Part shown: positions 7,140-23,335 of the stretch, in pieces
Layout: every line of letters starts with the position of its first letter
How positions within the stretch are numbered: position 1 is the first letter of the stretch
Origin: Thermodesulfobacteriota bacterium
GTDB taxonomy: Bacteria > Desulfobacterota > Desulfobacteria > Desulfobacterales > C00003060
Length of the DNA stretch: 24,702 nucleotides
Reading direction: 5' to 3'
NCBI GenBank assembly: GCA_034189385.1
Contig: JAXHVD010000035.1
Coordinates: forward strand, 1-24,702
The notes under the pieces: model-generated
Told to the model about the DNA's origin: nothing
Databases searched by the model: none
What the model saw: the letters and a program-made list of their open reading frames with translations, nothing else
Translations under genes and position numbers: made by a program

Positions 7140-7709
7140 CTATGGACGTACACGCCTTATGGTCAGGTTGACTTTGGCCTGCTCTTCCAAGAGCTCAATA
7201 AGGCTAAATGGTTCCTTGAAGTCTTTTCCCACAGAGACCACGCCGTGGTCTTTTAAGACGACAATCTGGGATCCCTTTAAGGCCTCCACAACCGGTTTTG
7301 TATCTGTAACCGTTGGACTCTCCTGGGGAATCACAGCGACATTTCCAAGATAGAATTTTGCTTCAAAGGAGAAGATGTCCAGGCTCTCGAAGTAATGGAA
7401 AAGGGCAACCGTAAAGGGTGGGTGGGCATGTAAGATCACTTCATGATCTGCAAAGGCACGGTGGATATCTAGATGTAGACTCTTTTCGCTCGTTGTCTCC
7501 CTTTTTCCTTCAAGGACGGCCCCCTCGGAGTCTATCAAAAGGACATCTTCCTCTTCCAGGTGCCCCAGGTAGGAGTCGTGTGCGGTGATGAGTATCTTCT
7601 CTGGGGCGATCTTGTAGGACATGTTTCCGCTCCTTGCCGTGACAAAACCCCTTTCGTTCAAAAGACGGGCCCACCTCATGACCTCTTTTCTTTGATTCTC
7701 AAAACGCAT
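7140..7709 (-). CDS. Class II aldolase/adducin family protein (FucA-like)
   Basis: SD AAGGAG before ATG 7709; SGNMS, SEKSLH, HAHPP and DHG metal-binding motifs. Confidence 0.9.
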   Translation of the reverse strand: MRFENQRKEVMRWARLLNERGFVTARSGNMSYKIAPEKILITAHDSYLGHLEEEDVLLIDSEGAVLEGKRETTSEKSLHLDIHRAFADHEVILHAHPPFTVALFHYFESLDIFSFEAKFYLGNVAVIPQESPTVTDTKPVVEALKGSQIVVLKDHGVVSVGKDFKEPFSLIELLEEQAKVNLTIRRVRP

Positions 7710-7835
7710 TCTTTTCTCCTTGTGGCCCACAGACCACATACCTGCCAACCGAACCAAAGACATCACCATATGTCGGCCTCTGCTGAAATGGCAAGGACTT
7801 TTGTCAGGTCACACTCCTCTTGGGACAGCATTTAC

Positions 7836-7888
7836 ATTGATTTTTTCAATCTTTAGACTCATCTATTATCAATATTAACTATTGGACT
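7836..7888 (+). promoter_or_regulatory. LysR-type operator/promoter of the yedE operon
   Basis: ATTGA-N5-TCAAT (7836-7850; T-N11-A). A second box ATCAATATTAACTAT (7868-7882) abuts the -35-like TGGACT. Aligns without gaps to the yedF upstream region. Confidence 0.7.
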
Positions 7889-7971
7889 TTTTCCATCTGA
7901 TTCGACATGTTTAGGCCTTCTGGCGCTGGCACTTACGTTCAAACAGATTTCAGAGGGAAAGGAGAGCCGCA

Positions 7972-9063
7972 GTGGGACAGATCAGAAACTTCCTGGCCAC
8001 CAAATGGGGAATCATGTCAGTGGGAGCCTTTATCGGCGTCTTTGCCACTTTGCTGCAAAGATGGGGTAATCCCGGCAACATGGGGGTTTGCGTGGCCTGC
8101 TTTGAGCGAGACATTGCAGGGGGCCTGGGGCTCCATCGTGCGGCCGTGGTTCAGTATATCCGCCCGGAAATCATTGGATTTGTCATCGGCGCGCTCATTG
8201 CAGCCTATGCCTTTAGGGAATTCAGGCCCCGGGCAGGGTCTGCGCCCATTGTCCGCTTCGTTCTTGGCGTTTTTGCCATGATTGGAGCCTTGGTCTTTCT
8301 GGGGTGTCCTTGGCGCGCCATGCTGCGGCTTACGGGTGGTGACGGCAATGCCATCCTGGGGCTTCTGGGACTGGTTGTGGGTATCTGGATCGGGACCTTT
8401 TTTCTTAAAGGGGGCTACAACCTGGGGCGAAGCAAAGAAACCTATGCATCGGTTGGCTGGCTGTTACCCCTTACCATGGCCGGGTTTCTCATCTTTCTGC
8501 TGATCTTTCCACAGGTAGAGGGGGAGGCAAAAAGCGGGATTTTATTCTACAGCCTGAAGGGTCCTGGAGCGATGCATGCCCCTATCGGACTATCGCTCAT
8601 TGTCGGCCTTGCCATCGGTTTTCTGGCCCAACGCAGCCGTTTTTGCACCATGGGTGCCTTCAGAGACCTCATCCTCTTTCGCATCCCTTATCTTTTTTAC
8701 GGGGTGCTGGCGCTCATCGTCTTTGCCTTTATTACAAACCTCATTCTAGGGCAATTTCACGCGGGCCTTGCAGGCCAGCCAGTGGCCCACACCATGCATC
8801 TTTGGAACTTTGGCGGCATGGTCCTGGCAGGCCTGGCCTTCTGCCTTGCAGGCGGTTGCCCGGGCCGTCAACTGTTTCTGGCTGGAGAGGGTGACGGCGA
8901 CGCAGCCGTCTTTGTCTGGGGTATGATCGTAGGCGCTGGCTTTGCCCATAACTTCGGCCTGGCGAGTTCGCCGAAAGGCGTTGGGCCCCATGGTATTGCC
9001 GCCGTTATCATCGGTCTTGCCGTCTGTGCCTTTATTGGCCTAACCATGCGACAGAAAGCTTAA
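7972..9063 (+). CDS. yedE: YedE/YeeE-family putative selenium transporter
   Basis: Polytopic membrane protein with GNPGNMGVCVACF, LGCPWR, QRSRFC and GGCPGRQ motifs; in an operon with selD. Confidence 0.9.
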   Translation: MGQIRNFLATKWGIMSVGAFIGVFATLLQRWGNPGNMGVCVACFERDIAGGLGLHRAAVVQYIRPEIIGFVIGALIAAYAFREFRPRAGSAPIVRFVLGVFAMIGALVFLGCPWRAMLRLTGGDGNAILGLLGLVVGIWIGTFFLKGGYNLGRSKETYASVGWLLPLTMAGFLIFLLIFPQVEGEAKSGILFYSLKGPGAMHAPIGLSLIVGLAIGFLAQRSRFCTMGAFRDLILFRIPYLFYGVLALIVFAFITNLILGQFHAGLAGQPVAHTMHLWNFGGMVLAGLAFCLAGGCPGRQLFLAGEGDGDAAVFVWGMIVGAGFAHNFGLASSPKGVGPHGIAAVIIGLAVCAFIGLTMRQKA

Positions 9064-9084
9064 GGTTAAAAGGAGGAGGTTACG

Positions 9085-9303
9085 ATGGCCGAAATAGTTG
9101 ATGCGAGCGGACTCTCCTGTCCACAGCCCGTGCTCATGACCCTGAACAAGATAAAAGGATTGGACAAAGGAGAAATAGAGGTCTTGGTAGATACAGACAC
9201 ATCCAAAGAAAACGTCAGCCGTGCGGCCCAAAGTCAGGGTTGGGAGGTTGACGAGGTGACTGAATCGGGCACCGGGTATCGAGTCCTGATAAAGAAGGAG
9301 TAA
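9085..9303 (+). CDS. TusA/SirA-family sulfur/selenium carrier
   Basis: DASGLSCPQP (CPxP) motif, 72 aa, SD AGGAGGAGG. Confidence 0.92.
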   Translation: MAEIVDASGLSCPQPVLMTLNKIKGLDKGEIEVLVDTDTSKENVSRAAQSQGWEVDEVTESGTGYRVLIKKE

Positions 9304-9309
9304 AACGCA

Positions 9310-9861
9310 GTGGCCTTTCAGGTTTTGAAACGCAGAAAAAAAAGGGCACCCAAGAAAAGAAATCCTGATCGGGGCTTTCTTGCCTTTGAAAACACCAGCG
9401 AGGTCATCAAGGCTGAATCCATTATCAGGACTCATGGGTGGAAGGTAAATGTCATGGGGCCGCCTCCGGAGTTGCGGACCGGTTGCGACCTTGTGATTGA
9501 GTTCCCCCTGGTCGAACAGCTCAATATCTTAAGACTTCTGGAGGAAAAGAGTCTTTCCCCCTTGGCAGTAGTGCCCGTAGATGATCCCCTTCTCAAGCCC
9601 GTGGATCTTTTTTTCACCACAGACTACGGCCAGCACTTGATGGTGCGGGCTGCCAACATGAAACTCACCGTAGACAAGGAGGCCCTTACCATTGTCAATG
9701 TCTCAGGCGGCGGTTGCCCGGACGTCCCCTTTTTAGGGGCAAAGCTGGTGGGCAAGAATCTCCGCCAAGCCCCGTCGCCCAGAGAGATTGGCCACACCTT
9801 GTGCGGATATGCATTACACCTGGCCTATGAGGAGATGAGAAGACAATGCTTGCTATCGTAG
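9310..9861 (+). CDS. DUF3343-type putative Se/S carrier protein with extra Cys-containing C-terminal domain
   Basis: F..TSEVIKAE...PPELRTGC N-terminal motif; SGGGCPDVP and HTLCGY in the C-terminal half; operon position. Confidence 0.7.
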   Translation: MAFQVLKRRKKRAPKKRNPDRGFLAFENTSEVIKAESIIRTHGWKVNVMGPPPELRTGCDLVIEFPLVEQLNILRLLEEKSLSPLAVVPVDDPLLKPVDLFFTTDYGQHLMVRAANMKLTVDKEALTIVNVSGGGCPDVPFLGAKLVGKNLRQAPSPREIGHTLCGYALHLAYEEMRRQCLLS

Positions 9862-10736
9862 GAACCGTGCCTGAAGAAGACTTCCCCATGTTAGAGGGAA
9901 CTGCTGTGCTAAGGAACGACTCACTCTTCTTAAGGGGTCATGAAGCATCCATCAACCGAGGGACCCCTGCCCTGATTGCTGCGGCCTCCGTGGCATGCGA
10001 CACCTTGGGGGTTTCACCACCCATCTCCCTTCTTGCGGGAGATGAGGGTGTGGGACATGGCAGTAGAAAGCTTTATGAACATCTAAAGACCCAGCTTCCA
10101 GGCCTGGCGGCGGAGGTCATTACCTTTCATTACCTTCAACCGGATGTGGACTGGCATAATCGCATCCTGCTGGCCCTTGAAGAAAAGGGTAAGCTGCCGC
10201 TTCTTATCGCCGATGCAGGATACATGTACGCCGCAAAGATGAGTGGTTTTGCTCCATGCTATGATCTTTTCACTCCAGACATCGGAGAACTGGCCTTTTT
10301 GGCCGACGAGATGGCACCCCACCCATTCTATACGCGTGGCTTTATCCTTCATGAAGAACAAAGGGTTCCTGACTTGATCCAACGGGCCTATGACGGGGAA
10401 AATGGGGCGAAGACCCTATTGATCAAAGGGGCAATAGACTATATATGTACGAAAGAAAGGGTCTTGGCCACGGTGGACACGCCCAGTGTGGCAACGCTGG
10501 AGCCCATTGGCGGAACGGGAGATACAGTGACCGGTATTGTGGCCGCTTTGGCAGTGGCCGGATACCCGGTCTCCGATGCCGCCATCATGGCCGCAAAGAC
10601 AAATCGTCTGGCAGGTCAGATGGCTGACCCCACGCCTGCGACACAGGTTTTCGAAATCATTAACAAGATACCAAGGGCCTTGGAGGATGTCCTCCAGCAA
10701 GATGCCAACAGGCGTCACAGTGCTGCCCTCGGTTAG
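9846..10736 (+). CDS. YjeF C-terminal-like (NAD(P)H-hydrate dehydratase/ribokinase-fold) protein
   Basis: LIADAG, TPDIGEL, LIKG and GGTGDTVTG ribokinase-superfamily motifs; overlaps the DUF3343 gene end. Confidence 0.8.
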   Translation: MLAIVGTVPEEDFPMLEGTAVLRNDSLFLRGHEASINRGTPALIAAASVACDTLGVSPPISLLAGDEGVGHGSRKLYEHLKTQLPGLAAEVITFHYLQPDVDWHNRILLALEEKGKLPLLIADAGYMYAAKMSGFAPCYDLFTPDIGELAFLADEMAPHPFYTRGFILHEEQRVPDLIQRAYDGENGAKTLLIKGAIDYICTKERVLATVDTPSVATLEPIGGTGDTVTGIVAALAVAGYPVSDAAIMAAKTNRLAGQMADPTPATQVFEIINKIPRALEDVLQQDANRRHSAALG

Positions 10737-10775
10737 GCCTGACAAAAGAAGCAACGAGGTCAACCCAACCCATCC

Positions 10776-11831
10776 ATGAAGATTTCCAATAACCCCATTT
10801 CTTTGACAGAGAAGGTGCGGGCCTCTGGTTGAGCGGCGAAACTGAGTCCGGGAGACTTGGAAGCCGTGATAAGGGACCTGCCGGTCATGAGCGACCCCAA
10901 TCTCTTGGTTGGGATTGAAACCTCTGATGACGCGGGCGTCTACAAACTCAACTCGGAAATGGCCCTCGTGCAAACCCTTGATTTCTTCACCCCTATTGTG
11001 GATGATCCCTATCACTTCGGTCGCATTGCAGCCGCCAATGCCCTGAGCGACGTCTATGCCATGGGCGGCAGACCCTTAACGGCCATGAACATCGTCTGTT
11101 TCCCCATTACAGATCTGCCCAAAGAGATCCTCAAAGAGATTCTGCGAGGGGGGCTTGAAAAGATCCATGAAGCAGGGGCAGTCCTGGCCGGGGGCCACAG
11201 CGTGGACGACAAGGAGCTCAAATACGGTCTTTCTGTCACAGGGGTTGTCCACCCCGACCACATCCTTACGAACCACGGCGCCAAGATGGGGGATCGATTG
11301 GTCGTGACCAAACCCATCGGCACAGGGATCATTGCCACGGCTCTGAAAGGAAAGCTGGCAAGCCAAAGTGCTGTAGATAGTCTGGTCGAGGTCACTTCAA
11401 CTCTAAACCGCCAGGCCTCTGACATCATGCTGCACCACAAGGTCCATGCCTGCACCGACATCACCGGTTTTGGTCTGGGCGGTCACTTGCTGGAGATGGC
11501 ACGGGCAAGTCACATGGAAATTGCCCTTTACACTGACAGGATTCCGATCATGCCTGAGGCCAAAGACTACGCCTTAATGGGCCTGATCCCTGCGGGAAGC
11601 TATGCCACCAAACACTTCTGTGAAGAAATGGTAGACATCAAGGCGGGGATCGACACCGTTCTCATGGACCTCATTTTCGATCCCCAGACCTCAGGGGGGC
11701 TGGTCATCTCCATGCCGGCCAGTGCGGCAGAGGCGTGCCTTCAGGAACTAAAGGGCGTTGGTGTCTCCTCAGCAGCCATCGTCGGTGAGGTGACCGGCGA
11801 GCACCCAAAGGGACGGCTGCACGTGGCCTAG
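10776..11831 (+). CDS. selD: Selenide, water dikinase (selenophosphate synthetase), selenocysteine-containing (U19), 351 aa
   Basis: ATG 10776 gives MKISNNPISLTEKVRASG-U(TGA 10830-10832)-AAKLSPGDL, in frame with the ORF-track ORF. UxxK catalytic motif plus DDAGVY, DFFTP, ANALSDVYAMGG, TDITGFGL and DPQTSGGL. Confidence 0.96.
10833..10867 (+). promoter_or_regulatory. Bacterial SECIS-like hairpin of selD
   Basis: Immediately 3' of the UGA: lower stem GCGGC/GCCGT, upper stem CTGAGTC/GACTTGG, G-containing loop CGGGA. Confidence 0.75.
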
Positions 11832-12117
11832 GGTTGGTTTGCTGAATGCAACATGCAACCTATTGGAAATGACCCGCCTTTCCTTCTCCCTGAGTCTCAC
11901 TCCTCTTCCCAGCCCTCTGTGACAATGGACACCGTTCCATCACCCGGTAAACACCGTAACATCAGAAGGCATCCCGGAACCAAGACCTCCGGCATGGACC
12001 TGGGGCTTCGTGCTGATACTCGGACGATCAGTCGGCAGAGCAGGTGAGGGAGATCAAGAAGATATGTTTGAAGAAAGGTTGTTTAAGCACTTGATGATGC
12101 CGGCGTTGAATACATGA

Positions 12118-13317
12118 TTATACGGCCAGTTTCTCGGATTTCAAGGCGTAAGCGATGGCGATACCAATCATAAAACCAACAGCCAGATTCGCTGCAAGGG
12201 TAATGCCTAACATTACCAAGGCGACGAACAAATCCTTTCGTTCCTTCATATCAATGATGGTCAGCGCAAGCTGGCTTCCTGCAAAAACGAGCAACACCCC
12301 CAACACAGACATGGGCACAAGGTACACGACGGCGAGGGAGTGAATTCCCAAAAACAAGGCGAGGCCAATGAACACCGCCCCGATCATCAGATTGGACCCG
12401 GCCGTGCGCGCCCCAAAGCGGTAGTGGGCTGCCAACCCTCCAGCCCCGTGGCACAGCGGCATGCCGCCAACGAGAAAGGCCGCAACATTGGCCAACCCCA
12501 TGCTCATGCACGCTGCCCGGTAAGTCACCCTCATAGACGCTTTTCCGAAGTACTCCTCTGACAGGTCGCCATAGGCGATGACGGCGTTGCCCAAGGTCAT
12601 GGGTATTTGGGGAAGGACAAGGACGAGGAGGGCAAAGGTGAAATCAACGCCCGTGGGGATTCCAAAAGGCAAGATTTGAGGAAGGTAGATACCTATCCTC
12701 AGTTTTTCAAACCCCTCGTGCGTCCCAAACAGCAGACCTAAACCTATACCTCCCAGAACAACGAGGAGTCCTGCAGGAAACTTCCTGTTGTCCAGCAACA
12801 AGAGGGTCAACACGCCGCCCATGACCCCGATGATGATTCCGATGGGGATCGGACCCAGACTCTGCACAGTCAGATAGGGCTCGGCCGCTTCCCGCAGCAC
12901 CTGGAACTTCGACGTCCCTATCATGAACTTCACCCCTTGGGCCATCAACAGGGTCCCTGTTGATATCTGGACCCCTCTTACCACTGGTTTTGGAATGTAT
13001 TTTCCCATGAGCGTGATGGCATTGGTGCCCCCGATAACCAACAAAAAAAAGGCAATCAAAAGCCCCGAGGCCGCAATCTGAGAGGCGGTCATGGCCGTTG
13101 CAATGGCATAGGCCCCGATCACTTTCATGGGTTGGACCGGCACGGTCACCCCATAGTAGACGCCGGAAAGGACAAAAAAGAGACCGACAGTCAGAAACAG
13201 ACCAGAAGGGCTGAGCCCGTTGATCATGATCATCCCTATGGCCAGCGGCAGCAGGGTCCCCAGGTCCCCCAAGGACCCTGCCAATTCCAGTCGGTCAAAC
13301 CTGTAACGTGAATACAT
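12118..13317 (-). CDS. Putative sulfate/molybdate transporter (MOT1-like)
   Basis: ELAGSLGDLGT, PVQPMK, PQIPMTLGNA and PLCHGAGGLAAHYRFGART motifs. Alternative start GTG 13344. Confidence 0.88.
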   Translation of the reverse strand: MYSRYRFDRLELAGSLGDLGTLLPLAIGMIMINGLSPSGLFLTVGLFFVLSGVYYGVTVPVQPMKVIGAYAIATAMTASQIAASGLLIAFFLLVIGGTNAITLMGKYIPKPVVRGVQISTGTLLMAQGVKFMIGTSKFQVLREAAEPYLTVQSLGPIPIGIIIGVMGGVLTLLLLDNRKFPAGLLVVLGGIGLGLLFGTHEGFEKLRIGIYLPQILPFGIPTGVDFTFALLVLVLPQIPMTLGNAVIAYGDLSEEYFGKASMRVTYRAACMSMGLANVAAFLVGGMPLCHGAGGLAAHYRFGARTAGSNLMIGAVFIGLALFLGIHSLAVVYLVPMSVLGVLLVFAGSQLALTIIDMKERKDLFVALVMLGITLAANLAVGFMIGIAIAYALKSEKLAV

Positions 13318-13765
13318 CGCCTTTTTGGCTCCTTTTGCTTTCACTTCTCAATGCACCCAACACAGCATAACAGGAATCCGGCTTTTAAGATGACACGACC
13401 GTTCACCGTTGACGGTTATCCGTTGTCCGCAGTGCGATCACTCATGTCACGCCTTTAGCCTACACTGTAGGCGGTCCGCCCAAAGCATCTTCGGGTACGT
13501 TTCCTTGGCTCTATAGGCCCCTGCATTCTTGTGCATTGCCGAGAGATCTCTGTCGTTGAGCAGAGACCCTAAAACGATGAGCATTTAGCGCATAACTACC
13601 ATAAGCTAGAGGTTTGGCAAGAAAGAAACGATTCCCCCTATGTGGTCCTGCCCAAATCCCATTGAAAGATCCCAATAAATTAGGTATGAACCCTCTCAGC
13701 TGGTGTTCTGGAAGATATGGTAGCCGAAAAAAGAGAGCCCGCTTTCGGAGGAAGAAGGAGGTTCC

Positions 13766-14077
13766 ATGAAGAATCTGTTCATCATCTGCAGTGACGATGG
13801 CGAAACCATCTACAACGCCATGCGGTTGGCCAATGTGGGGGTCCAGAAGGGCGATGAAATCAGCGTATTCATGCTCGGCAAGGGCGTGCTTTTTGAAAAG
13901 AGTGGCACCGAACAGTTCAATGTCATGGAAGAAATCAACAAGTTTGAAGGGGACTTCTACGTCTGAGGGGTCTGCATGAAATCCCACGGTCTGGAGGGAT
14001 CGAGCACCTGTCCCATTGCATGGATGGATGATCTGTATGAACTGTCCATGGACGCAGACAAAGTCCTCACCTTCTGA
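13766..14077 (+). CDS. DsrE-family selenoprotein with UxxC motif (U67), 103 aa
   Basis: SD AAGGAGG. Readthrough of TGA 13964-13966 gives ...DFYV-U-GVCMKSHGLEGSSTCPIAWMDDLYELSMDADKVLTF*, which completes the DsrE fold. The tail parallels CGTC...ADKVISL of YedF in this window. Confidence 0.9.
13981..14000 (+). promoter_or_regulatory. SECIS-like hairpin of the DsrE gene
   Basis: ATCCCA-CGGTC-TGGAGGGAT begins 15 nt after the UGA; apical GGUCU as in the E. coli fdhF SECIS. Confidence 0.7.
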
Positions 14078-14093: not shown

Positions 14094-14951
14094 ATGTTCA
14101 CAACAGAGCCTAAGATGTCGGACTTCGGTGGCAGCCTGAAGGGGCTATTTCTGGACAAACCAGAATCTGTGATAAACCTTCCGGCACAGCTCCTTTCGTC
14201 ACAGAGAATCAAAGAATACAGGGCTATGTCCCGACTCGCCATTGTAGAAATCGCAGGCCGGGACAGCGTGGCTGCAGCCATCAGGAGTGTGGCGGCAGAA
14301 GGCTTTACGGACCTGCTGCCCACTTACGTATATACGGCCACTGAGCACGGGCCGTGGGCCGGTGTGGAGGAGGCTGTCGAGCGCCTGGCAAGGCGACTAC
14401 CCGAAGTCCGCGTACACGATCTCCTGGTCCTGGGCTCCCCCGGCTTCTGGCAGGCACTGAATGGAAGGTTCATCGGTGAACTGACATCAAGATTTGGTTT
14501 CTATACACCCTGCATCGGGTGCCACCTTTATCTGCACAGCGTCCGCATCCCCCTTGCCCTCACCTTGGGAAAAGCCCCGATTATCTCGGGAGAACGCGAG
14601 CTGCACGACAACGCCATCAAGGTGAACCAGATTCCCGAGGCCCTGGATGTCTATCAGGACGTGGCAAGAACTTTTGGAGTGCGCCTTCTTTTTCCCCTCC
14701 GTTACATGGCAGAGGGCAGGAGCATTGAGAGCATCCTTGGTTTTAGGTGGGAGGGAGGAAAGGAGCATTTGGGCTGCGTGTTGTCCGGAAACTACCGGTC
14801 ACTGGGCGGAGACCCTGCCATCACGGCCCCGCAGGTTCAAAGATTCCTGAAAGTATTCGCCGGACCATGTGCAAGGCGAATTGTCGAGGCCTACATAGCA
14901 GGCCGTGTGCCGAACCATTTGGAGATCGCCGCTGAAACGCTCCAACCCTAA
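14094..14951 (+). CDS. Uncharacterised protein, adenine-nucleotide alpha-hydrolase/PP-loop-like, with CxxC
   Basis: AIVEIAGRDSVAAA resembles a degenerate SGGxDS PP-loop; PCIGCH, IISGER, FPL and a late Cys (LGCVL). Start moved to ATG 14094 because 14016 lies inside the extended DsrE gene. Confidence 0.65.
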   Translation: MFTTEPKMSDFGGSLKGLFLDKPESVINLPAQLLSSQRIKEYRAMSRLAIVEIAGRDSVAAAIRSVAAEGFTDLLPTYVYTATEHGPWAGVEEAVERLARRLPEVRVHDLLVLGSPGFWQALNGRFIGELTSRFGFYTPCIGCHLYLHSVRIPLALTLGKAPIISGERELHDNAIKVNQIPEALDVYQDVARTFGVRLLFPLRYMAEGRSIESILGFRWEGGKEHLGCVLSGNYRSLGGDPAITAPQVQRFLKVFAGPCARRIVEAYIAGRVPNHLEIAAETLQP

Positions 14952-15043: not shown

Positions 15044-15120
15044 GATCATTGTTTCTATGCTAAAGCCAGCGTTATTATAGATATTTTCAATTTGACTTAT
15101 TCTGTGATTCAATATAGTCT
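15044..15120 (+). promoter_or_regulatory. LysR-type box plus sigma-70 promoter of the TIM-barrel/apgM-like operon
   Basis: ATAGA-TATTT-TCAAT (15077-15091) is directly followed by TTGACT-17 nt-TAGTCT. A weaker distal box lies at 15044-15058. Confidence 0.7.
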
Positions 15121-15198: not shown

Positions 15199-16056
15199 AT
15201 GAAAAACACTGGAACGAATGTCAGGCCAAAGCTGGCTATGTGTAACCTCTTTCTAGACGTTAAGAGACTCAGAGAGTTCGCCCTTGATCATGGGTTCTCC
15301 GGTATTGACTGGTCATTTGAACCTTCTACATTGCCCCAAACGCCGGCAGAAGAATCGATGTGGGTAAAGTACCTCTCATCCCTCAAGCCTCTCGAGCTGC
15401 GTTATCATTGCCCCTTTCAAAGGATAGACTTGGGCCATGTGGACCCTCGGGAAGCAAAGGCCGCAGAGGAGATTTTTCGCAACATTATCCGACTCGTAGC
15501 CAGGGCAAACGGCGAATTCTTGACCATTCACATCGGTCTGGGGCGAGATTCCACACAACCCCTTTCGTGGGACAGAACCTCAAAGAACCTGTCTCGTGTG
15601 GTTCAGTACGGTGCAAGCCATGGCGTCAGGGTCTGCCTGGAGAACTTGGCTTGGGGTTGGACGAGCAGGCCTCACCTTTTTGAAAAGTTAATCCGAAGAG
15701 GCGGGGCCAGCGTCACATTTGACATTGGCCATGCCCATGCTTGTGAAGCAATCAACACGCAAGAGTTTGAAATAGAAGACTTTCTTACCCCCCATGCAGA
15801 TCGGGTCTTAAATGCCCACATATACCACACGGAGCTTCCCAATCGCGGGCATATCCCGCCAGAGCGATTGGAAGACATCAAAGACCGCCTTGAGATGCTC
15901 CAACGCATTGGCTGCAACTGGTGGGTCCTAGAGGTTTGGGATGAGAACGGATTATTGCAGACCAAGAAGATCGTAGAGGAGTATTTGACACAGGCCCCAT
16001 ACTGGGCTAAATCAGACCATCAGGACCCTTCAGCCAATATGGCATCCCACGGTTAA
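15199..16056 (+). CDS. Xylose isomerase-like TIM-barrel (sugar phosphate isomerase/epimerase family) protein
   Basis: HCPF, TIHIG, CLENL, FDIGHA, HIYH and VLEV metal-binding motifs. Confidence 0.88.
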   Translation: MKNTGTNVRPKLAMCNLFLDVKRLREFALDHGFSGIDWSFEPSTLPQTPAEESMWVKYLSSLKPLELRYHCPFQRIDLGHVDPREAKAAEEIFRNIIRLVARANGEFLTIHIGLGRDSTQPLSWDRTSKNLSRVVQYGASHGVRVCLENLAWGWTSRPHLFEKLIRRGGASVTFDIGHAHACEAINTQEFEIEDFLTPHADRVLNAHIYHTELPNRGHIPPERLEDIKDRLEMLQRIGCNWWVLEVWDENGLLQTKKIVEEYLTQAPYWAKSDHQDPSANMASHG

Positions 16057-16112: not shown

Positions 16113-17417
16113 ATGAAGACTATCCTTGTCCTCCTAGACGGTCTGGGTGATCGCTCATATAAGATCCTTGGTGACCGCACCCCCCTTCAAGCCGCCCGCA
16201 CCCCCAATCTGGACCGATTGGCTCGCTTGGGGAGCAATGGCCTCTTTCATGCCGCCCTGCCCGGCCAGTGCTTGCCCAGTGAGATCGCCCACTATTTGCT
16301 CTTGGGCTACGACCTGGAAGATTTTCCCGGCCGGGGGCTTCTGGAGGCCGTTGGCTATGATGTCGAGTTTGATGATAGGGATGTGCTGTGCCTGGCACAT
16401 ATCGCCAGCGTGTCCTGGAAAACCGGTGTTCCCATCCTGGCCAGAAAACGTCCCCCTATGGATGACGAAGAGCTGCGGCAGGTTTTCTCTGCCATTGCTA
16501 CCTATGAAGTAGATGGAATTGCCTTTCGCCTCCAGCAGACCCGCAGCAATGACGCCATTCTCATCTTAAGTGGCCAGGCGTCGCCCTGCATATCTGACTC
16601 TGATCCCATGGTGGTCAGCCAAGCCATGGCCAAGATCTGGGCTCTTTCAGACAACCCGGAGCCAGAAAGTGCGGCCCAGAGCGCGAAAGCCTTGAACGCC
16701 TATCTTACCCACTGCTACAGGGTCTTGTCCGAGCACGAAGTCAACCGTCGGCGACAGGCCAACGGCATGCCGCCTGCCAATTTCCTTGCAACACAACGCT
16801 GCGGGCGCCGTATTGAGCAGGAGCCCTTTGATCAGAAGTGGGGTATGGCAGGGATGTTTATCGCCTCAGGAGCAATGTATAAAGGTCTGGCCCATGAGTT
16901 GGGGCTCAGATTTACCCGTGTAAAAGATACGGACAAACCAGATGAGGATCTCAGGGAAAGGATAGACCTTGCCCTGGCAGATCATGCCCGTGATTTCATC
17001 CATGTCCACACCAAGGTACCGGACGAGGCCGGCCACACGGGAGATCCAAGGCGGAAAGAAGCCGCTATTGCTGCCCTTGATCGCGGACTGGAAGAATTGA
17101 TCCGGGCAGTGGGAACCAGGGATGATCTGCTAGTCGTGGTCACGGCAGACCATTCCACACCCAGCATGGGCCCTTTGATTCACTCTGGCGAGCCCGTGCC
17201 TGTGATGCTGGTCGGCCCGACGGTTCGACGAGATGGGGTGGAGGCATTTGACGAGGTGAGTGCAGCAAAGGGCTCTTTAGGCCTGTTGAAGGGCCGGGAG
17301 TTGATGCTCACCATTCTCAATTATTCTAATCGGGCTTCGCTGCTCAGCCACCATCTGGGCCCACATCAAAGGCCTTATGTTCCCCGAACCTATGAGCCAT
17401 TTGGGCTGAAAGATTAG
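16113..17417 (+). CDS. Alkaline phosphatase superfamily, ApgM-like cofactor-independent phosphoglycerate mutase homolog
   Basis: LDGLGD, TPLQAARTPNLD, PSEIAH, GRG.LEA, HTKVPDEAGH, TADHSTP and HSGEPVP motifs. Confidence 0.9.
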   Translation: MKTILVLLDGLGDRSYKILGDRTPLQAARTPNLDRLARLGSNGLFHAALPGQCLPSEIAHYLLLGYDLEDFPGRGLLEAVGYDVEFDDRDVLCLAHIASVSWKTGVPILARKRPPMDDEELRQVFSAIATYEVDGIAFRLQQTRSNDAILILSGQASPCISDSDPMVVSQAMAKIWALSDNPEPESAAQSAKALNAYLTHCYRVLSEHEVNRRRQANGMPPANFLATQRCGRRIEQEPFDQKWGMAGMFIASGAMYKGLAHELGLRFTRVKDTDKPDEDLRERIDLALADHARDFIHVHTKVPDEAGHTGDPRRKEAAIAALDRGLEELIRAVGTRDDLLVVVTADHSTPSMGPLIHSGEPVPVMLVGPTVRRDGVEAFDEVSAAKGSLGLLKGRELMLTILNYSNRASLLSHHLGPHQRPYVPRTYEPFGLKD

Positions 17418-17531
17418 TTTTGGGGACTCGTCCTCCCCTTCTTCGTGCCGGGCAAACAACCGCCGCATTTCTCGTGGTAGACTTCAGCTGGACAGGGCAG
17501 TATGGGTACTCACAAATGCAGCCCTCTCCGG

Positions 17532-17570
17532 AAAGGAAAAGGGGGCGCCCGGTATGGAGGTGCCCCCCTT
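17532..17570 (-). terminator. Intrinsic terminator downstream of the cytochrome gene (possibly bidirectional)
   Basis: Minus strand GGGGGCACC-loop-GGCGCCCCC followed by TTTTCCTTT, between convergent genes. Confidence 0.7.
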
Positions 17571-17705
17571 GATGAACAGAAAGGAGGGTCATGCTTTACT
17601 CCTCTCTTGGCTGAAGTCATTTCCCCAACTACGCAGACCCTCCTCTCTTCAATAGATAAATGACAAGAAGTCTTGATGACCTCCAAGGCCTTTGGGGGAG
17701 GGCTC

Positions 17706-18950
17706 TTACTCGATGGTAAACTTGTGCTTCATTGTCTCCTCACCAAGCAGCTCGCCACCTGCGTAGTTGAGCATCTTCAAACTCACAATCACCTTTGCGG
17801 TGCCCGTCGCGTCGCCTACCCCGATGGTGTCAGACCACACCCAGTCATAAGTGGCTGCGGTTAGCGTCTCATCCTTGGTCAGGGCTAGCATCTTAACACC
17901 GGCCCCGTCTTTCGCCTTGGACTTGACGGCCTTCACATAGCAGCTGCCCCCGCCCAAGACGTGGAACCGCACGTTGTATTGGATGGGATCCCCAGAGGTA
18001 AACGTGTTCTTCACGGTGCCAGTGCCGCCTGTGGTCCACACATCTTCAACAATTAGCCTGAGTCCCTGATGAATCGCATCGACCGAATGGCACTCTGCGC
18101 AGTCCATCAGGCCGCACTGGGCCGGGTGCTCCTGAGCTGTAAACGGATCGGACACCTTAAAGTGACAGGTCTTGCAGCTCGCGGTGGCGTCTGGCAGCTG
18201 ATAAGGATTCTCCACGCCTGCATTTACCAGGTAATAATTGATCAATTCCGCCGTGTGTCCCGCCATGTAAGCACATGCCTTTCCACAACGATCGTTCTTG
18301 TGAGTGTTAGCGTAAGCGGACATATCATTCAAATCCACACCCGCTGCGTAACACCACTTGCTGATCGAGACATGGCAAAGGGGCGAATAGGCTGTGGTGT
18401 AGGCCAGGACCTCGTGGTCAGGTACCGGCTCGGGAGCGTAGCCGGTGTCCCAGCCGTAGGTGGGGTCCTCAAAGAGATCGTGAAGGCCTCTGGGTGGAAA
18501 CTCCGTCTCGCAGTAATGACCCAGCACTTCCGTTGCAAGCGGTGACCAAAGGTTCGCGAGACCTAAAGCAGAAATGCAGCCGTTGAGAATGCCACACAAT
18601 GTACCCCAACAGTTAATGCCTCCGCTTCCAAATTTGAACCAGCTAGTGGCACCACTTGGGATCTGATCCCAATCCGTTCCTTCGCCACTGTAAGCATCCT
18701 TAAATCCGTCAATAAGCCCCGATGCAGCCCCGTTCATGCAGCCGCCGTTTGCGTGGTAATGATACCAGGCATATTTCTTTACCATGTTGACGTCGAGCAG
18801 GTGGCTGCTATCGGCAGGCAAATAGCCCAGTGCAGCATGGGCAGTCTGGGGTAGCGTAAGCCCCCCCGCAAAGCCCGCTGTAAGAGCACCAGCTCCGACG
18901 ACACTTCTTTTCAAAAACCCTCTTCTACTAAGATCCAAATCTCTTGTCAT
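17706..18950 (-). CDS. Tat-exported split-Soret cytochrome c-like protein (C-GCAxxG-C-C-type domain, two CxxCH) with C-terminal beta-rich extension
   Basis: Tat motif SRRGFLK; GGCMNG, GTLCG, LCHVSISKWC and RCGK motifs; CKTCH and CAECH; SD AAAGGAG. Confidence 0.85.
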   Translation of the reverse strand: MTRDLDLSRRGFLKRSVVGAGALTAGFAGGLTLPQTAHAALGYLPADSSHLLDVNMVKKYAWYHYHANGGCMNGAASGLIDGFKDAYSGEGTDWDQIPSGATSWFKFGSGGINCWGTLCGILNGCISALGLANLWSPLATEVLGHYCETEFPPRGLHDLFEDPTYGWDTGYAPEPVPDHEVLAYTTAYSPLCHVSISKWCYAAGVDLNDMSAYANTHKNDRCGKACAYMAGHTAELINYYLVNAGVENPYQLPDATASCKTCHFKVSDPFTAQEHPAQCGLMDCAECHSVDAIHQGLRLIVEDVWTTGGTGTVKNTFTSGDPIQYNVRFHVLGGGSCYVKAVKSKAKDGAGVKMLALTKDETLTAATYDWVWSDTIGVGDATGTAKVIVSLKMLNYAGGELLGEETMKHKFTIE

Positions 18951-19247
18951 TTTTTCTCCTTTCTAGTTTACATGTGAGTTTTAAGAGAACAGCCCATTTC
19001 ACACCTCAGTATCACCTCCTTAAGACCGGCTTTTTAAACAATGACTTCCGACGACTTCGGCGGCGAGATGCACGTGGAGCCCTCATTGGGGGAATAAGTC
19101 ACTATGACAGCACCGGCAATGTTTGCTGTTTCGTCAAAAGACTTCTGTTCACAGGTTACAGCTCCTGCCATCATCTGCTAGACAGGCTCTGCGGCTATAG
19201 ATCAAAGACCCTTGGGTCTGTGGGGACACATTGGAAAGTCCGCGAGA

Positions 19248-19376
19248 TCAGGATCGAGCCCCGCACGCACCTTCTTTTCCGGCAACCCTAATGGGAGAGA
19301 TCCGCGTCCACCGGTAAATGGTATGATAACAGCCGATGTCCCACCGCAATTCCGTTGGATCAATTGACTCTGACAT
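19248..19376 (-). CDS. Possible 42-aa small protein (below the ORF-track cutoff)
   Basis: SD AGGGAGGAG before the ATG; MSESIDPTELRWDIGCYHTIYRWTRISPIRVAGKEGACGARS then TGA. No family recognised. Confidence 0.35.
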   Translation of the reverse strand: MSESIDPTELRWDIGCYHTIYRWTRISPIRVAGKEGACGARS

Positions 19377-19442
19377 GTCGAAATCTCCTCCCTAAAGATC
19401 CCTCTATTAGATTCATCCCTGGTCCGGTTCTAGGCCCCGGGG

Positions 19443-19470
19443 TTAGGCGGGGCCTATGGGCCCCGCCTAA
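19443..19470. repeat. Perfect 12-bp hairpin
   Basis: TTAGGCGGGGCC-TATG-GGCCCCGCCTAA, with no clear U-tract. Confidence 0.8.
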
Positions 19471-20003
19471 ATGGAGGAGAAATGTGAGACCAGACCCCGC
19501 AACACGCAGGTTCTTTCGGGCGGAACGGGGCGAAGCCTTCTCACCGAGACCTCATTCTGCATCTTTGACAAGATGCTTTTCCGCCCGAATTCTGATTAGC
19601 CAAGCGGTAGTTACGCTCACAGACCATACGTCAGGCTGGGACCGCTTTTTTGCCACACCTGCCGCGATATCTCCTCATGGGTATTCGAGACGAGACTGGC
19701 TTGCCGAAGGATTGGTGGGCTTTGCCCACGATGAAAGGAAGCTTCTTCTGGTAAGGCTTTAGGGAAGTTTGAAGCGGGACTTGACAAACAACGTCGAGAA
19801 ACGAGGACTTCCAGCCTTGCCAAAACAACCCTCCACGATTTCCAGGCCGCAACCTAACCTAGGCCGGATGGAAATTAGGGCAAGGCCTCATCTGCTCAAA
19901 CGATTCGGTATCTTCTCGTTAGGCACCGATGTTTCACCCCCAGTTCAGTAAGAATTGTGGTGCTGCAGATTTGTTCCAAGGAGAAAATTTGAACTTCGGA
20001 GAA

Positions 20004-20047
20004 ACCATATAGAGAAATAAGGAATATGTCAAATAGATAATTTCTAT
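20004..20047 (-). promoter_or_regulatory. LysR-type box plus sigma-70 promoter firing toward the cytochrome gene
   Basis: Palindrome ATAGA-N5-TCTAT (20033-20047) is immediately followed on the minus strand by TTGACA-17 nt-TATGGT. Confidence 0.75.
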
Positions 20048-20152
20048 GTTTTCCCGTATAAGATATTTAAAGTTCCCATGTCATGCGTATCCTGAGAGAC
20101 TATGAAGCCATCTGGTTGCTCGGATAGCCTTTCTGGGTTTGGAACGGGGCAA

Positions 20153-20353
20153 TCAAGTAAAAGGGCAAGCAAGTCTGCTGGCGGGGTAAAGATGTCTTTT
20201 TCCGCAAAAGGGGCAGGCAATCGTGAGTTGGACCTTGGCATCCCAGACCTTGTTTCCGGACTCATCGGTCTTGATGCCATGGTCTTTAATGATCCGATAG
20301 GCGTCAGTTTCAAAAGTCTGGTGCGTTTCAGGGCAGAAGAAGATGAGTTTCAT
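20153..20353 (-). CDS. Small Cys-rich protein (CP...CPFCG...H...CPF), possibly metal-binding
   Basis: 66 aa, SD TAAGG, zinc-ribbon-like Cys pattern. Confidence 0.7.
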   Translation of the reverse strand: MKLIFFCPETHQTFETDAYRIIKDHGIKTDESGNKVWDAKVQLTIACPFCGKRHLYPASRLACPFT

Positions 20354-20400
20354 TTACCTTATGTAACAGTGACCACCCAGAAAGGGCTCAAAAAGATTAA

Positions 20401-20600
20401 TAACGTTCAGAAGTTATGACATCGTCTATTTCTGAATAGACAACTACCGGATAGGGCGAATCGCTTCTCTTCGGCATCCAATGCCTTTAAGTAGCCCATA
20501 CCATTGCTGTGGATGGAAATGGCTGTATGCCTATGTTCAGCCATCCTCCCTATCCTTTTAACTGCCTGCGAAGACGCTTTGGCTCAACTTTTGAACGTTA
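20401..20600. repeat. ~200-nt structured non-coding element, copy 1 (candidate ncRNA or MITE)
   Basis: Terminal IR TAACGTTCAGAAGTT/AACTTTTGAACGTTA. Inner stems GGATAGGG/CCCTATCC, CATCCA/TGGATG and TGGCTG/CAGCCA. Aligns end to end with 23141-23335. Confidence 0.75.
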
Positions 20601-20608
20601 CCAAAAGC

Positions 20609-20646
20609 TTTGGCCCTGCAGGCCTGTTGGGCCCGCAAGGCCAAAT
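20609..20646. terminator. Hairpin, probable terminator for the porin transcript
   Basis: Minus strand TTTGGCCTTGCGGGCC-CAACA-GGCCTGCAGGGCCAAA followed by GCTTTT. Confidence 0.55.
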
Positions 20647-20662
20647 TAATTAGAATCTAGAA

Positions 20663-20841
20663 TGAATGAAATCGTATAAAGGCAAAGAATCCCTCTTTCT
20701 GTGACTCCTTCGAAAGCCGGGCACCGTGCCTCTGTTCAAGCCGCCAGGCGCAACCCTGAGCGCCATCCCGTAATGTCAGACAGTTAAAATGCCCCTGGAC
20801 CCCGGTTTTCACCGGGGTGACAACTTTCTACGAAACGGTCA
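20663..20841. repeat. Degenerate MITE/REP-like element
   Basis: Imperfect terminal IR TCGTATAAAG / CTTTCTACGA. Internal CTGGACCCCGGTTTTCACCGGGGTGAC resembles the 3' arm of the 999-1062 repeat. Confidence 0.5.
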
Positions 20842-20854
20842 GGATTGCATTGCA

Positions 20855-22015
20855 CTAGAATCCCACGCAGACCTGCAAGGTGAAGATTCCCCTGTCGTCT
20901 TTTTCATCGTTATCAGGATCGACATTCATGTAGTCGGCTGTTATCTTGCAGTTGTGTCCCTTCATATAATAGTTGACGCCGCCACTAAAGAAATCGGTCT
21001 CACTCTTGCCGTCCACATCCACTGTCTCGTAGCGGAAGTATGGCTGCAACTGCCCAGGGCCAAAGGATCCGGGCAGAAGATATCCGACATTGAAATACCA
21101 GTTCTCAGCATCGTCTCCAGCGGCTAGATCTGTATACATCTGCGGCTGCGTTTCCGTACATTTTTCGATATCGATATAGGCCGCCTCAAAGGTGACCGCA
21201 CCGTCTCCTAAGGGGTGGTCAAAGAAGACATCAGCGGTCCAGACCTCATTGTCTTCACCCTCAACACTGTTCAAGGTCAGGTCGTCTTGACTCTGGTAGC
21301 CCAGGCCCAGGCTCAAGACCTTTTTCTTACCCAGGTATGTCCCTTTATTAAACCAGCTGGTCTCCGGCTCCAGCAGGCTTAGCGAAAGCCGTCCCACAAA
21401 GCGCAAGTTGTCTTCGGGATTGTTGTCACCCTCAACCCCTTCGGAAATCATGAAACGGTATTGCAGGAGTCCGTCCATGGGATTCCCCCACAGGGTCACA
21501 CTGTCGTCTCGGCCCACCTTCTGGGCATAAAAGATGCCACCTCTGGAGCCTCCCTGCAAAAAGGGAAGATCCATGGTCAACATCGCCTTTGTTGACGTGG
21601 TGCCATAGTTGCGAGTGAGTGGAACATACATGCGGCCGAACTGAACCTTCAAGGCCTCATCTAAGTTTAGAGTAAGCCACAAGTCGCGCCAGGCGACACC
21701 GCTTCCCAGTCCTATTCCAGATTTGTCAAGCCCCTCCTGCCCGACCTTATCCGAAGCGATGTGGGTAAAGAAGCTCACATGCTCTGTCACCTGTCCCTTC
21801 AGATACAAATAGGCACGCCGGATCATGAAATCGTTTAAATCCTCATCACCCTTGCCATCCTCAACAAACTGATACATACCCTGCATCCAAATACCGATCT
21901 CCCCATGGGTTTGGTCATCAAGTTCCATTTTGATTCCCGCCCAGCATGGGTTCACCAATACCAGCACACACAAGAACGTCAGCATCATCTTGGCCAATAG
22001 CGCAACTCTCCTCAT
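20855..22015 (-). CDS. Phosphate-selective porin O/P family, ExtI-like (selenite/tellurite operon porin type)
   Basis: SD AGGAGG before ATG 22015; signal peptide; F.IRRAYL..KG, GRDDSVTLWG, LQPYFRYE and GVNYY.KGHN.K motifs; C-terminal Phe; downstream of yedF. The ExtI subfamily call rests on recalled similarity plus context. Confidence 0.75.
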   Translation of the reverse strand: MRRVALLAKMMLTFLCVLVLVNPCWAGIKMELDDQTHGEIGIWMQGMYQFVEDGKGDEDLNDFMIRRAYLYLKGQVTEHVSFFTHIASDKVGQEGLDKSGIGLGSGVAWRDLWLTLNLDEALKVQFGRMYVPLTRNYGTTSTKAMLTMDLPFLQGGSRGGIFYAQKVGRDDSVTLWGNPMDGLLQYRFMISEGVEGDNNPEDNLRFVGRLSLSLLEPETSWFNKGTYLGKKKVLSLGLGYQSQDDLTLNSVEGEDNEVWTADVFFDHPLGDGAVTFEAAYIDIEKCTETQPQMYTDLAAGDDAENWYFNVGYLLPGSFGPGQLQPYFRYETVDVDGKSETDFFSGGVNYYMKGHNCKITADYMNVDPDNDEKDDRGIFTLQVCVGF

Positions 22016-22204
22016 GCAACTTCCTCCTGTAGTAAGAATTTGGTAAACCTCAATAACAACCAACCTCTCAATACACTATTCCGGTTAGGTCAGCATCACC
22101 CCCTCTGGCGTGGCCCCAAGGGCCGGGTGCGTTAGAAGCGTCATGGGCCCTTTCAAAAGATCTCGTCTTTTGCATTCAATTCAGCCCGACCCTGAAGTGC
22201 GAGC

Positions 22205-22801
22205 TCACAGGCTAATTACTTTGTCCGCAACCTGCAGGCTTGTCACGATATCAAGCATGTTGGTGGTGACCCCCACCCGCTTCTGCTCCAACAGATCAAA
22301 ATGATTCAAGCAGGTGCCGCACACCAAGACGCTCACGCCATGAGCCTCTAAATGTTGGACGGCGGGCAGGGTTTCGGCCCCCTCTACTGTGAGCTTGACC
22401 CCACTGTTCAGAAAGACCAGCCTCCAAAGGGCCTCTCCCATCTCATTGAGGGTGTCGAGGTAATTGCGCATGAGCCCAGCTCCCAGAAGATCGTCCCCAG
22501 AACCCATAGTGTTCTTAGTAATCAGCACGAGTGTCTTCTGTAATGAAGACGCTGCCTCTGTCGCAGCAGGCACGTCAGCGCGTTCTTCGGACTTTGCCGC
22601 CTTGATCTCAAAGTCACGCCCCTCTTTATCAAGAGACGCTTCAAAGCCTTGGCTTTCAAAGAACCTCACGACGTTTTGGGCGGAGGCAGCATTGTCAACC
22701 ACCACCGTGAATTCCATGGCCTGAGGGTTGGATTCAACAAGATCTTTGGTTCTAAGTACCGGCTGGGGACAGGCAAGCCCCCGGCAATTCAATGTCTCCA
22801 T
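22205..22801 (-). CDS. yedF: Selenium metabolism protein YedF (SirA + DsrE domains)
   Basis: NCRGLACPQP, MGSGDDLLGAGLM, FLNSGVKL, CGTCL and TNMLDIV motifs. Confidence 0.93.
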   Translation of the reverse strand: METLNCRGLACPQPVLRTKDLVESNPQAMEFTVVVDNAASAQNVVRFFESQGFEASLDKEGRDFEIKAAKSEERADVPAATEAASSLQKTLVLITKNTMGSGDDLLGAGLMRNYLDTLNEMGEALWRLVFLNSGVKLTVEGAETLPAVQHLEAHGVSVLVCGTCLNHFDLLEQKRVGVTTNMLDIVTSLQVADKVISL

Positions 22802-22915
22802 CAAGCCCTCTCCTGTTCACGTTAGGCCTTCAGTTCTGGTGAGATAGGGATTACCGCACCTGCCAGCCTTTTCTTGTAAAAAAACAGCCTCATTCCTGTA
22901 ACATTTCTACGTAAG

Positions 22916-22968
22916 TGTCAAATAGGTAATATCGATTATATCAATTCTCATACATTGATTATCTCAAT
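22916..22968 (-). promoter_or_regulatory. LysR-type operator/promoter of yedF-porin
   Basis: Boxes at 22954-22968 (ATTGA-N5-TCAAT), 22931-22945 and 22922-22936; the last abuts TTGACA (22916-22921, minus strand). Confidence 0.75.
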
Positions 22969-23140
22969 ATCTGTTTGTGGCCATTGGAGACCGTCTTTGA
23001 GTTCACCTACTGGACCCAAAGGCGCCTTGCCTTGGGATGCTGCGACAACACCCCTGAGGCTCCTTCCAGGGGATGTCGTTGCTGCCGCCCCTTCCGGGCA
23101 GCCCAGCGCAGTGTGTTTTGTAAATGGGCCGATTATTGGG

Positions 23141-23335
23141 CAATGTTTAGAGGTCGCCACAGTGGATTTTTGAATAGACCTCGGGGAGAGGGATCATCTC
23201 TTCTCTTTGCCATCCAATGCCTTTGAGATGCAGTGCGATTTCTCTAGGTGGAAATGGCTGTGTCCCTGCGCCCAGCCACCAATCCCGTCCCCTTGAAGGT
23301 CTGCCATGGAAGTTTGCCTCAACTTTTGAACATTA
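23141..23335. repeat. ~195-nt structured non-coding element, copy 2
   Basis: Shares TGAATAGAC, CTTCTCTT, CATCCAATGCCTTT, TGGAAATGGCTGT, CAGCCA and CTCAACTTTTGAAC with copy 1. Stems are retained despite sequence change. Confidence 0.75.

Follow-up and report, generated by a model that had tools for sequence, protein, structure and literature searches.

A candidate selenium-acquisition locus of two gene modules in a Thermodesulfobacteriota bacterium

We describe a locus on contig JAXHVD010000035.1 of the Thermodesulfobacteriota bacterium assembly GCA_034189385.1, which was analysed as one entire contig of 24,702 nt (hereafter the window) belonging to a genome of 4.1 Mb and 90% completeness. Comparison of gene neighbourhoods resolves the locus into two modules and a set of bystanders. 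Module A consists of yedE, sirA, a long DUF3343 carrier gene, the gene for a ribokinase-fold enzyme (SK) and a selD gene containing a selenocysteine (Sec) codon, together with yedF, extI and the gene for a 66-amino-acid (aa) four-Cys protein; module B is a trio encoding a PP-loop enzyme (PP), a TIM-barrel protein (TIM) and an ApgM-like metalloenzyme. We propose a selenium (Se) acquisition regulon in which module A would act as an import and activation relay and the enzymes of module B would make or recycle a nucleotide or phosphate ester that carries Se, a reading that we regard as evenly balanced overall. Of its parts, module A, SK included, very probably serves Se acquisition, and a functional tie between module B and Se is probable in this lineage.

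The locus bears on two questions: how anaerobes whose selenoproteomes are large obtain trace Se when sulfide far exceeds it, and by which steps Se passes from YedE to SelD. For the likely missing step it offers an ATP-type enzyme together with a three-Cys carrier. The uptake genes were known already, and the SK step, like the module of three slots, seems to be new: neither SK nor the trio was described in a Se context in the literature searched, which left most subscription journals outside, and the supplement of 10.1101/2022.04.13.486033 may name SK.

Selenium uptake and carrier genes

Every gene named in a first-pass annotation of this DNA was recovered in place, by Pfam or NCBIfam matches and, for PP, by the fold of its model; Pfam TusA, PF11823 (DUF3343), MFS_MOT1, DsrE, Carb_kinase, AP_endonuc_2 and Aldolase_II were likewise matched above curated cut-offs. 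Module A begins on the plus strand with yedE (7972..9063), coding for a putative Se channel of the YeeE/TsuA family (TIGR04112, 478 bits against a cut-off of 200), followed by a SirA/TusA-like carrier with a CPxP motif (9085..9303; PF01206) and the long DUF3343 carrier (9310..9861; PF11823, 183 aa). The latter gene overlaps that of SK (9846..10736; Pfam Carb_kinase, YjeF-C/ThiM-like), and SelD follows at 10776..11831 (TIGR00476, 395 bits against 125; in-frame TGA at 10830). The remaining members lie on the minus strand: the four-Cys protein (20156..20353), an ExtI-like porin (20855..22063; NF040900, 165 bits against 150) and YedF, with its SirA and DsrE domains (22205..22804; TIGR03527, 215 bits against 110). 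All three transport candidates put forward earlier, ExtI, YedE and a MOT1-like protein, stand above their cut-offs; the MOT1-like protein was seen with these genes only in three loci at least 90% identical and is treated with the bystanders below. ExtI genes adjoin module A or B genes in six other loci, and loss of ExtI in Geobacter reduces selenite reduction (PMC5877670).

Three cysteines of the long DUF3343 carrier (C59, C136 and C165) are invariant in an alignment of 75 sequences. Its predicted model combines a ferredoxin-like N-terminal domain with a C-terminal domain that is weakly IscU-like (Z 5.8); a Foldseek search with this model returned nothing at E 0.001 or better, and hidden Markov model (HMM) searches of the PDB with the alignment gave no significant match. 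SK retains the GGTGD anion hole and residues D145/E148, has no conserved Cys, and finds its best PDB matches in 3dzv, 2ax3 and 3k5w. The 66-aa protein, which the first-pass annotation had overlooked, travels with module A and keeps all four of its Cys invariant.

Five enzymes (SK, the module B trio and a class II aldolase) had been proposed to share a link to Se. For SK the proposal holds overwhelmingly. The family is large, with at least 4567 clusters among 8000 candidates scored, and the long DUF3343 gene lies directly upstream of SK in 101 of 102 loci, the sole miss being at a contig edge. Across 59 SK loci from named GTDB records, DUF3343 was present in 58, sirA in 53, yedE in 52, selD in 21 and the four-Cys protein in 10. 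SK occurs in 46 of 150 genomes of the home phylum; a yedE matching TIGR04112 is found within 6 kb of it in 37 of these and further away in three, and in all six genomes with no such match SK adjoins selD or a distant yedE. In a second phylum (that of genome G401; 176 genomes, 62 with selD), SK was found in 4 of the 62 selD-positive genomes, one of the four being the seed genome, and in none of the 114 selD-negative ones; two of these SK genes lie within ~2 kb of selD.

The home genome holds further copies of this arrangement. A paralogous yedE-DUF3343-SK cassette lies on contig C1 (about 288050-297500) and is followed by genes for a ThiS-like protein, a Glu/Leu-dehydrogenase-like protein, two lyases and ThiF; since it precedes ThiS/ThiF-type genes, the cassette looks like a front end able to feed different downstream enzymes. 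A third DUF3343-SK pair is divided between the ends of contigs C14 and C20.

Two other genes recur at loci of this kind. In 16 loci (including L017, L025, L033, L068, L073, L097, L121 and L146) SK is followed by the gene for a small DUF1858-like protein in which a C-x-x-C motif is conserved; this protein was not found in the home genome, where the 66-aa four-Cys protein may take its place. Genes for a double-cubane reductase (NF040772) and for its activase are repeatedly found next to modules A and B (L039, L042, L073, L081, L084, L086, L088, L097 and L126), the pair being a candidate ATP-driven Se-oxyanion reductase; a search of the home genome did not find the reductase.

Selenocysteine genes

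The SelD of the window is the only one detected in the genome, and the position aligned with its Sec is a stop codon in 52 of 52 homologues. A second Sec gene on the plus strand (13766..14077; TGA at 13964) encodes a DsrE-like protein (Pfam DsrE) with a U-x-x-C motif; here the aligned position is a stop in four of five homologues and Cys in one, and UxxC selenoproteins of DsrE-like type have been catalogued previously (PMC9312934). Both in-frame TGA codons occupy Cys-type positions. Hairpins are predicted 3' of each, at -19.8 kcal/mol for selD and -15.2 kcal/mol for dsrE (values with no shuffle control).

As noted at first pass, selA, selB, selC and selU are absent from the window, and Rfam and ARAGORN scans of the window gave no match. 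SelA, SelB, tRNA-Sec and LysR_Se are encoded on other contigs, so that the absence of selA, selB and selC from the window carries no meaning and the SelD encoded here serves ordinary Sec synthesis at least. No selU was found in the genome, at its 90% completeness.

Gene content and selenium linkage of module B

The trio is encoded on the plus strand: PP (14094..14951), a YcfA-like AANH/PP-loop enzyme with an AGRDS loop and cysteines C140, C143 and C228; TIM (15199..16056), a metallo-TIM barrel of the Pfam AP_endonuc_2 family; and the ApgM-like enzyme (16113..17417; TIGR00306, 325.7 bits against a cut-off of 320). For these three the proposed Se link stands in part, as they recur in or beside Se operons of several clades but have no Se gene nearby in most genomes. 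They are also rarer than SK in the home phylum, PP being found in 8, TIM in 5 and the ApgM-like enzyme in 13 of the 150 genomes. The two modules seldom meet, with PP in none, TIM in two and apgM in one of the 59 SK loci. Because SK and the trio are mostly apart and the aldolase is unlinked, the five enzymes do not form a single pathway, as the first-pass reading had allowed; two modules and a bystander aldolase take its place. Neighbourhood and co-occurrence analysis, which had been named as the check on the Se link, thus ties four of the five enzymes to Se genes to differing degrees and leaves the aldolase out.

Where the trio does meet Se genes, it can be deeply embedded among them. Three loci (L146, L148 and L150) share the operon order yedE-sirA-DUF3343-SK-DUF1858-PP-TIM-apgM-(dsrE)-selD-yedF, and in L088 the trio lies between sirA and selD. 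In an alternative layout a PHP gene is divergent from apgM-PP, and this arrangement stands beside selB, a Sec-lyase-like csd, yedF, selD or LysR_Se in L173, L175, L182, L190, L193 and L203; csd itself lies near PP in L176, L193 and L203 only. Three of the five TIM loci in the home-phylum sample are inside Se operons. Among 80 metagenome PP loci, apgM was found in 58, TIM in 34, PHP in 10 and an NMNAT-like nucleotidyltransferase (NT) in none. A Se gene was present in 22 of the 43 such loci of at least 5 kb; these metagenome loci were chosen by similarity to the window PP and are not independent.

A sample of 40 ApgM-family loci from 400 genomes defines, beside the ApgM-like enzyme itself, two slots with interchangeable occupants. 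The first is taken by PP in 13 loci and by the NMNAT-like NT in 21, never by both; the TIM/PHP slot is taken by TIM in 8 and by PHP in 12, again never by both. Across all loci collected, PP and NT never occur together, and TIM and PHP do so once. These swaps constrain the chemistry even if Se is not the substrate. In a quick ApgM tree of 64 rows, built without loci shorter than 8 kb and without partial matches to ApgM, the Se-adjacent label required 11 changes, at least eight of them forced by well-supported branches, so the Se link has been gained or lost repeatedly and does not trace back to one inherited event.

Further genes were seen beside module B: a 156-aa HAD/P-type-ATPase-like protein in eight loci (L126, L173, L176, L182, L187, L190, L193 and L208) and a TsoB-like rhodanese in five.

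Predicted activities of the module B enzymes

PP has no Pfam or NCBIfam match, a set of 87 homologues likewise yielded no real NCBIfam family, and HMM searches of the PDB with the PP alignment gave no significant match. Its AlphaFold2 model (predicted local distance difference test score 93) shows an AANH/PP-loop fold and aligns with YcfA at Z 22.1 and a root-mean-square deviation of 2.6 over 217 residues; the next-best match is ThiI (Z 13.8), then QueC, MnmA, LarE and NcsA. YcfA is a thioamide synthetase: it activates GTP by adenylation at the guanine carbonyl and attaches either cysteine or selenocysteine, after which YcfC frees 6-thio- or 6-seleno-GTP in vitro (PMC12494993). The pyrophosphate loops correspond, A54-G55-R56-D57-S58 of PP to G16-G17-R18-D19-S20 of YcfA, and a by-eye alignment of N178-Q179 with E134-Q135, which together with F132 bind guanine in YcfA, may serve as a lead only. 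The match of the modelled fold to YcfA lends real support to the earlier idea of a Se-bearing nucleotide.

A second comparison concerns the cysteines. C143 and C228 are invariant and C140 is present in at least 90% of the 87 sequences, at a mean identity of 27%. In TtuA-type enzymes a three-Cys site holds a [4Fe-4S] cluster for sulfur transfer. PP has the PP-loop and the three conserved Cys (CxxC plus C) of this group, with fold matches to TtuA, NcsA and mmLarE at Z 7.5-9.0, and by analogy C140, C143 and C228 may coordinate a [4Fe-4S] cluster and serve to hold Se.

In the ApgM-like enzyme S56 and the metal ligands D304, H308, D346, H347 and H357 are invariant. A distant second homologue (29%) is encoded on home contig C31, so the window copy need not be glycolytic. 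TIM has invariant His, Glu and Asp residues and is distant kin of the phosphodiesterase CbiR and of MJ1311; on the CbiR model NF041277 it scores 43.2 bits, under the cut-off of 105.

A LysR-type promoter box

The common promoter box reported at first pass is confirmed: the window contains five copies of the palindromic LysR-type pattern ATWG-N7-CWAT against 1.65 expected from the genome rate, and four of the five copies are intergenic, the fifth being inside selD. The box between the aldolase gene and yedE (7836..7850) is likely a LysR_Se site. Others lie upstream of TIM-apgM (15077..15091), upstream of yedF-extI (22922..22968, a tandem pair of which one, at 22922, is a near-match) and at 20033..20047, where no gene start is adjacent and the next gene downstream, for a split-Soret-like cytochrome, is 1.1 kb off.

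The pattern recurs in other genomes, in counts that come from kin loci and hence are not independent: 33 of 88 yedE upstream regions had a box (2.0 in shuffled sequence), as had 9 of 42 for TIM (0.8), but only 1 of 71 for PP and 4 of 55 for apgM (1.4). The background was 38 of 2460 genes in the home genome and 9 of 434 genes in the fetched loci. A genome search with the simple pattern placed one box 464 nt upstream of selA, and selB, selC, LysR_Se and the second yedE had no box in the adjoining 500 nt.

Proposed mechanism and alternative explanations

The analysis shows the identities and linkage of the genes, the mutual exclusion of slot occupants, the enrichment of the box and the fold predicted for PP; from here on, every chemical step of the two modules is inferred. 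ExtI and YedE would import inorganic Se species, which SirA and the three-Cys DUF3343 protein would hold on their cysteines. SK likely activates these species at the expense of ATP so that they can be loaded onto the DUF3343 carrier, and the loaded carrier would deliver selenide to SelD. In module B, slot 1 would be an AMP-transferring enzyme (the YcfA-fold PP here, the NMNAT-like enzyme elsewhere), slot 2 an ApgM-like transferase working through a phospho-serine, and slot 3 a metallo-phosphoesterase (TIM here, PHP elsewhere). A nucleotide-type substrate would be adenylylated, undergo Se substitution and then phosphoryl transfer, and finally be hydrolysed, and the module could serve as an ATP-driven trap or store of trace Se in sulfide-rich cells. 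The aldolase would have no part in this pathway.

In its most specific form the proposal makes PP a dedicated selenoamide synthetase, fed by the relay and producing a naturally occurring nucleotide with Se in it (one of 6-selenoguanine, for instance), which the ApgM-like enzyme and TIM would tailor into a Se store or cofactor precursor; we consider this version doubtful. If true, it would add a new route of Se incorporation in anaerobes to the Sec, selenouridine, hydroxylase cofactor and selenosugar pathways. The trio is soluble and its first member has the predicted fold of an enzyme that makes seleno-GTP in vitro, which puts the search for further natural selenometabolites within reach of purified proteins.

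Several findings weigh against the two-module proposal. With selD present in 143 of 151 home-phylum genomes, co-occurrence there says nothing, and presence/absence profiling was uninformative. For module A, the contig C1 cassette, placed before a ThiS/ThiF-type carrier pathway, points to a front end that might handle sulfur too. For module B, 34 of the 40 ApgM-family loci have no canonical Se gene within ~9 kb (6 have one, or 9 counting double-cubane reductase genes), and the box precedes the module in only 4 of 40 loci compared with 9 of 434 control genes, which gives little hint that a trio standing by itself is regulated by Se. None of the 176 second-phylum genomes yielded a member of the ApgM family, and that phylum therefore provides no Se-negative test for module B. 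PP itself is just 13-15% identical to YcfA, with no HMM match between them; YcfA has cysteines only at positions 25, 43 and 113 (supplement model), so the three-Cys set of PP is not in YcfA, and the window holds no C-S lyase of YcfC type. The swap of NT for PP suggests that what the two have in common is transfer of AMP and need not be insertion of Se. EF-P/EpmA-like genes adjoin four distant PP homologues (24-27%; L069-L072), a possible other use of the same fold. In P0368, P0380, P0386 and P0387 a very distant PP domain follows a DUF4062, a nucleoside-phosphorylase-like or a membrane domain, and three of these four proteins have Lys in place of the loop Arg; these fusions look like signalling or defence proteins unrelated to Se.

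In a rival explanation only module A is a genuine Se relay, and module B, brought alongside by common islands, is either a Se-independent phosphoryl or phosphonate pathway of PhpF/PhpG type, proceeding by nucleotidyl activation, ApgM-like transfer and release by the phosphoesterase, or a sulfur-insertion pathway. This would account for the mostly unboxed, unlinked majority of ApgM-family loci and for their commonest partner, the NMNAT-like enzyme (21 of 40); PhpF provides a nucleotidyltransferase precedent, and the best match of PP is a sulfur-inserting enzyme. The ApgM-like protein scores 226.7 bits on the PhpG model NF038358, which points the same way but is short of the cut-off of 545. On the other hand, common islands do not readily explain why the trio of several clades is inserted within Se operons, as in L088 or between SK and selD in L146, L148 and L150, nor why 15% of loci are Se-adjacent when a rough calculation based on genome size and the number of loci gives ~3%. 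We therefore hold a Se-independent module B to be somewhat unlikely.

A third explanation keeps the Se link of module B and gives it no end product: the trio would carry out salvage or damage control, hydrolysing or re-routing seleno- or thio-phosphorylated by-products (imported Se-nucleotides, for instance, or thiophosphate that SelD would form where sulfide is abundant) and returning selenide to SelD. A box common to module B and the uptake genes fits an acquisition regulon of this kind, two of the three slots have phospho-transfer or hydrolysis folds, and the HAD-like protein recurring in eight loci would suit it as well. It is made quite unlikely, in our view, by slot 1, which has the fold of an ATP-spending synthetase, used for building in YcfA, ThiI and LarE.

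Finally, a single selenosugar-phosphate pathway of all five enzymes would explain why the aldolase, with its Aldolase_II domain intact, sits on a boxed divergent promoter with yedE, and is nevertheless very improbable given an aldolase Se-linked in none of its eight closest orthologue loci and found in one of 80 PP loci, and given the separation of SK from module B.

Bystanders and other features of the window

The class II aldolase domain (7140..7709, minus strand, probable start 7709; PF00596) was accordingly rejected as a pathway member. It lacks the SCP2 tail of its orthologues, the eight best of which are 315-341 aa long (the tail was seen in the one scanned); five of the eight lie in clusters with MtnA-like, nucleoside-phosphorylase and B12-radical-SAM genes. 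The single metagenome PP locus with the aldolase belongs to a 98%-identical relative.

Membership of the MOT1-like oxyanion transporter (12118..13344, minus strand; PF16983) is uncertain, its association with these genes having been seen in the three near-identical loci with no genome-wide MOT1 search. The split-Soret-like cytochrome (17706-18950, minus strand), predicted to be exported by the twin-arginine translocation (Tat) system, has two paralogues elsewhere in the genome; beside these genes it was found at no other locus except that of one 98%-identical relative. A structured 170-nt repeat is present in two window copies (20431-20604 and 23171-23339) and has no Rfam match. As a Se-specific regulatory RNA it was rejected, there being ~35 near-full copies genome-wide, and it is probably an element resembling miniature inverted-repeat transposable elements (MITE) or repetitive extragenic palindromes (REP).

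Just downstream of the aldolase, on the minus strand, are genes for a MazF/PemK toxin and a ribbon-helix-helix (RHH) antitoxin (6283-6829). The minus-strand region 1102-5618 contains a two-component system (sigma-54 regulator and kinase) and then three unannotated open reading frames for exported or outer-membrane-like proteins, with no Pfam match.

Comparison with known systems

The closest known system is the Se-trafficking gene set of Lin et al. 2015 (PMC5322559), in which yedE, yedF, DUF3343 and LysR_Se are predicted Se genes. The yedE, sirA, yedF, DUF3343 and LysR_Se families of that set are over their cut-offs and selD-linked here: YedE, YedF, DUF3343 and SelD are clustered, and the host decodes Sec and has LysR_Se, as in a known SelD-linked Se-trafficking cluster. 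The double-cubane dehydratase-like protein and activase, STRING partners in that work, are the genes that recur beside module A. The DUF3343 protein differs, with 183 aa and an extra two-Cys domain in place of the 80-100 aa given there, and the accessible part of PMC5322559 names neither SK, nor the four-Cys protein, nor the PP/TIM/ApgM trio.

Thiosulfate uptake by YeeE-YeeD (TsuA-TsuB; PMC11073785) likewise pairs a YeeE-family channel with a TusA-type small protein following it. The window YedE is far under the TsuA cut-offs (45 against 400 and 33 against 645 bits) and above that for seleno-YedE, and the window adds the three-Cys carrier, SK and SelD.

For module B, YcfA-YcfC provides the closest fold to PP, with a common G-R-D-S loop and, in YcfA, use of selenocysteine en route to 6-seleno-GTP (PMC12494993); unlike in YcfA-YcfC, the partners of PP have ApgM-like and phosphoesterase folds. 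PhpF, a CTP:phosphonoformate nucleotidyltransferase (10.1101/2025.05.01.651723), and PhpG of phosphinothricin biosynthesis show the same pairing of a nucleotidyltransferase with an ApgM-like enzyme as 21 of the 40 ApgM-family loci. In contrast to that system, the home genome yielded no NT partner and no phosphonate genes were seen in the loci examined; a literature search on PhpG and the HrsM site yielded nothing useful. The senABC work (10.1101/2022.04.13.486033) used clustering of selD with enzymes as a criterion for Se small-molecule pathways. Both the senABC selenoneine cluster and the window have selD among enzyme genes, whereas the folds differ and the host group here is anaerobic; SenA and SenB had no match among the 15 window proteins, to which the search was limited.

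SK shares its ribokinase-like fold and GxGD motif with NnrD, the NAD(P)HX dehydratase, and with ThiM. It scores well below the cut-offs of both (32.1 against 129.85 bits on TIGR00196 for NnrD; 25.2 against 180 bits on NF006830 for ThiM) and, unlike them, has invariant motifs of its own and an obligate pairing with a three-Cys carrier.

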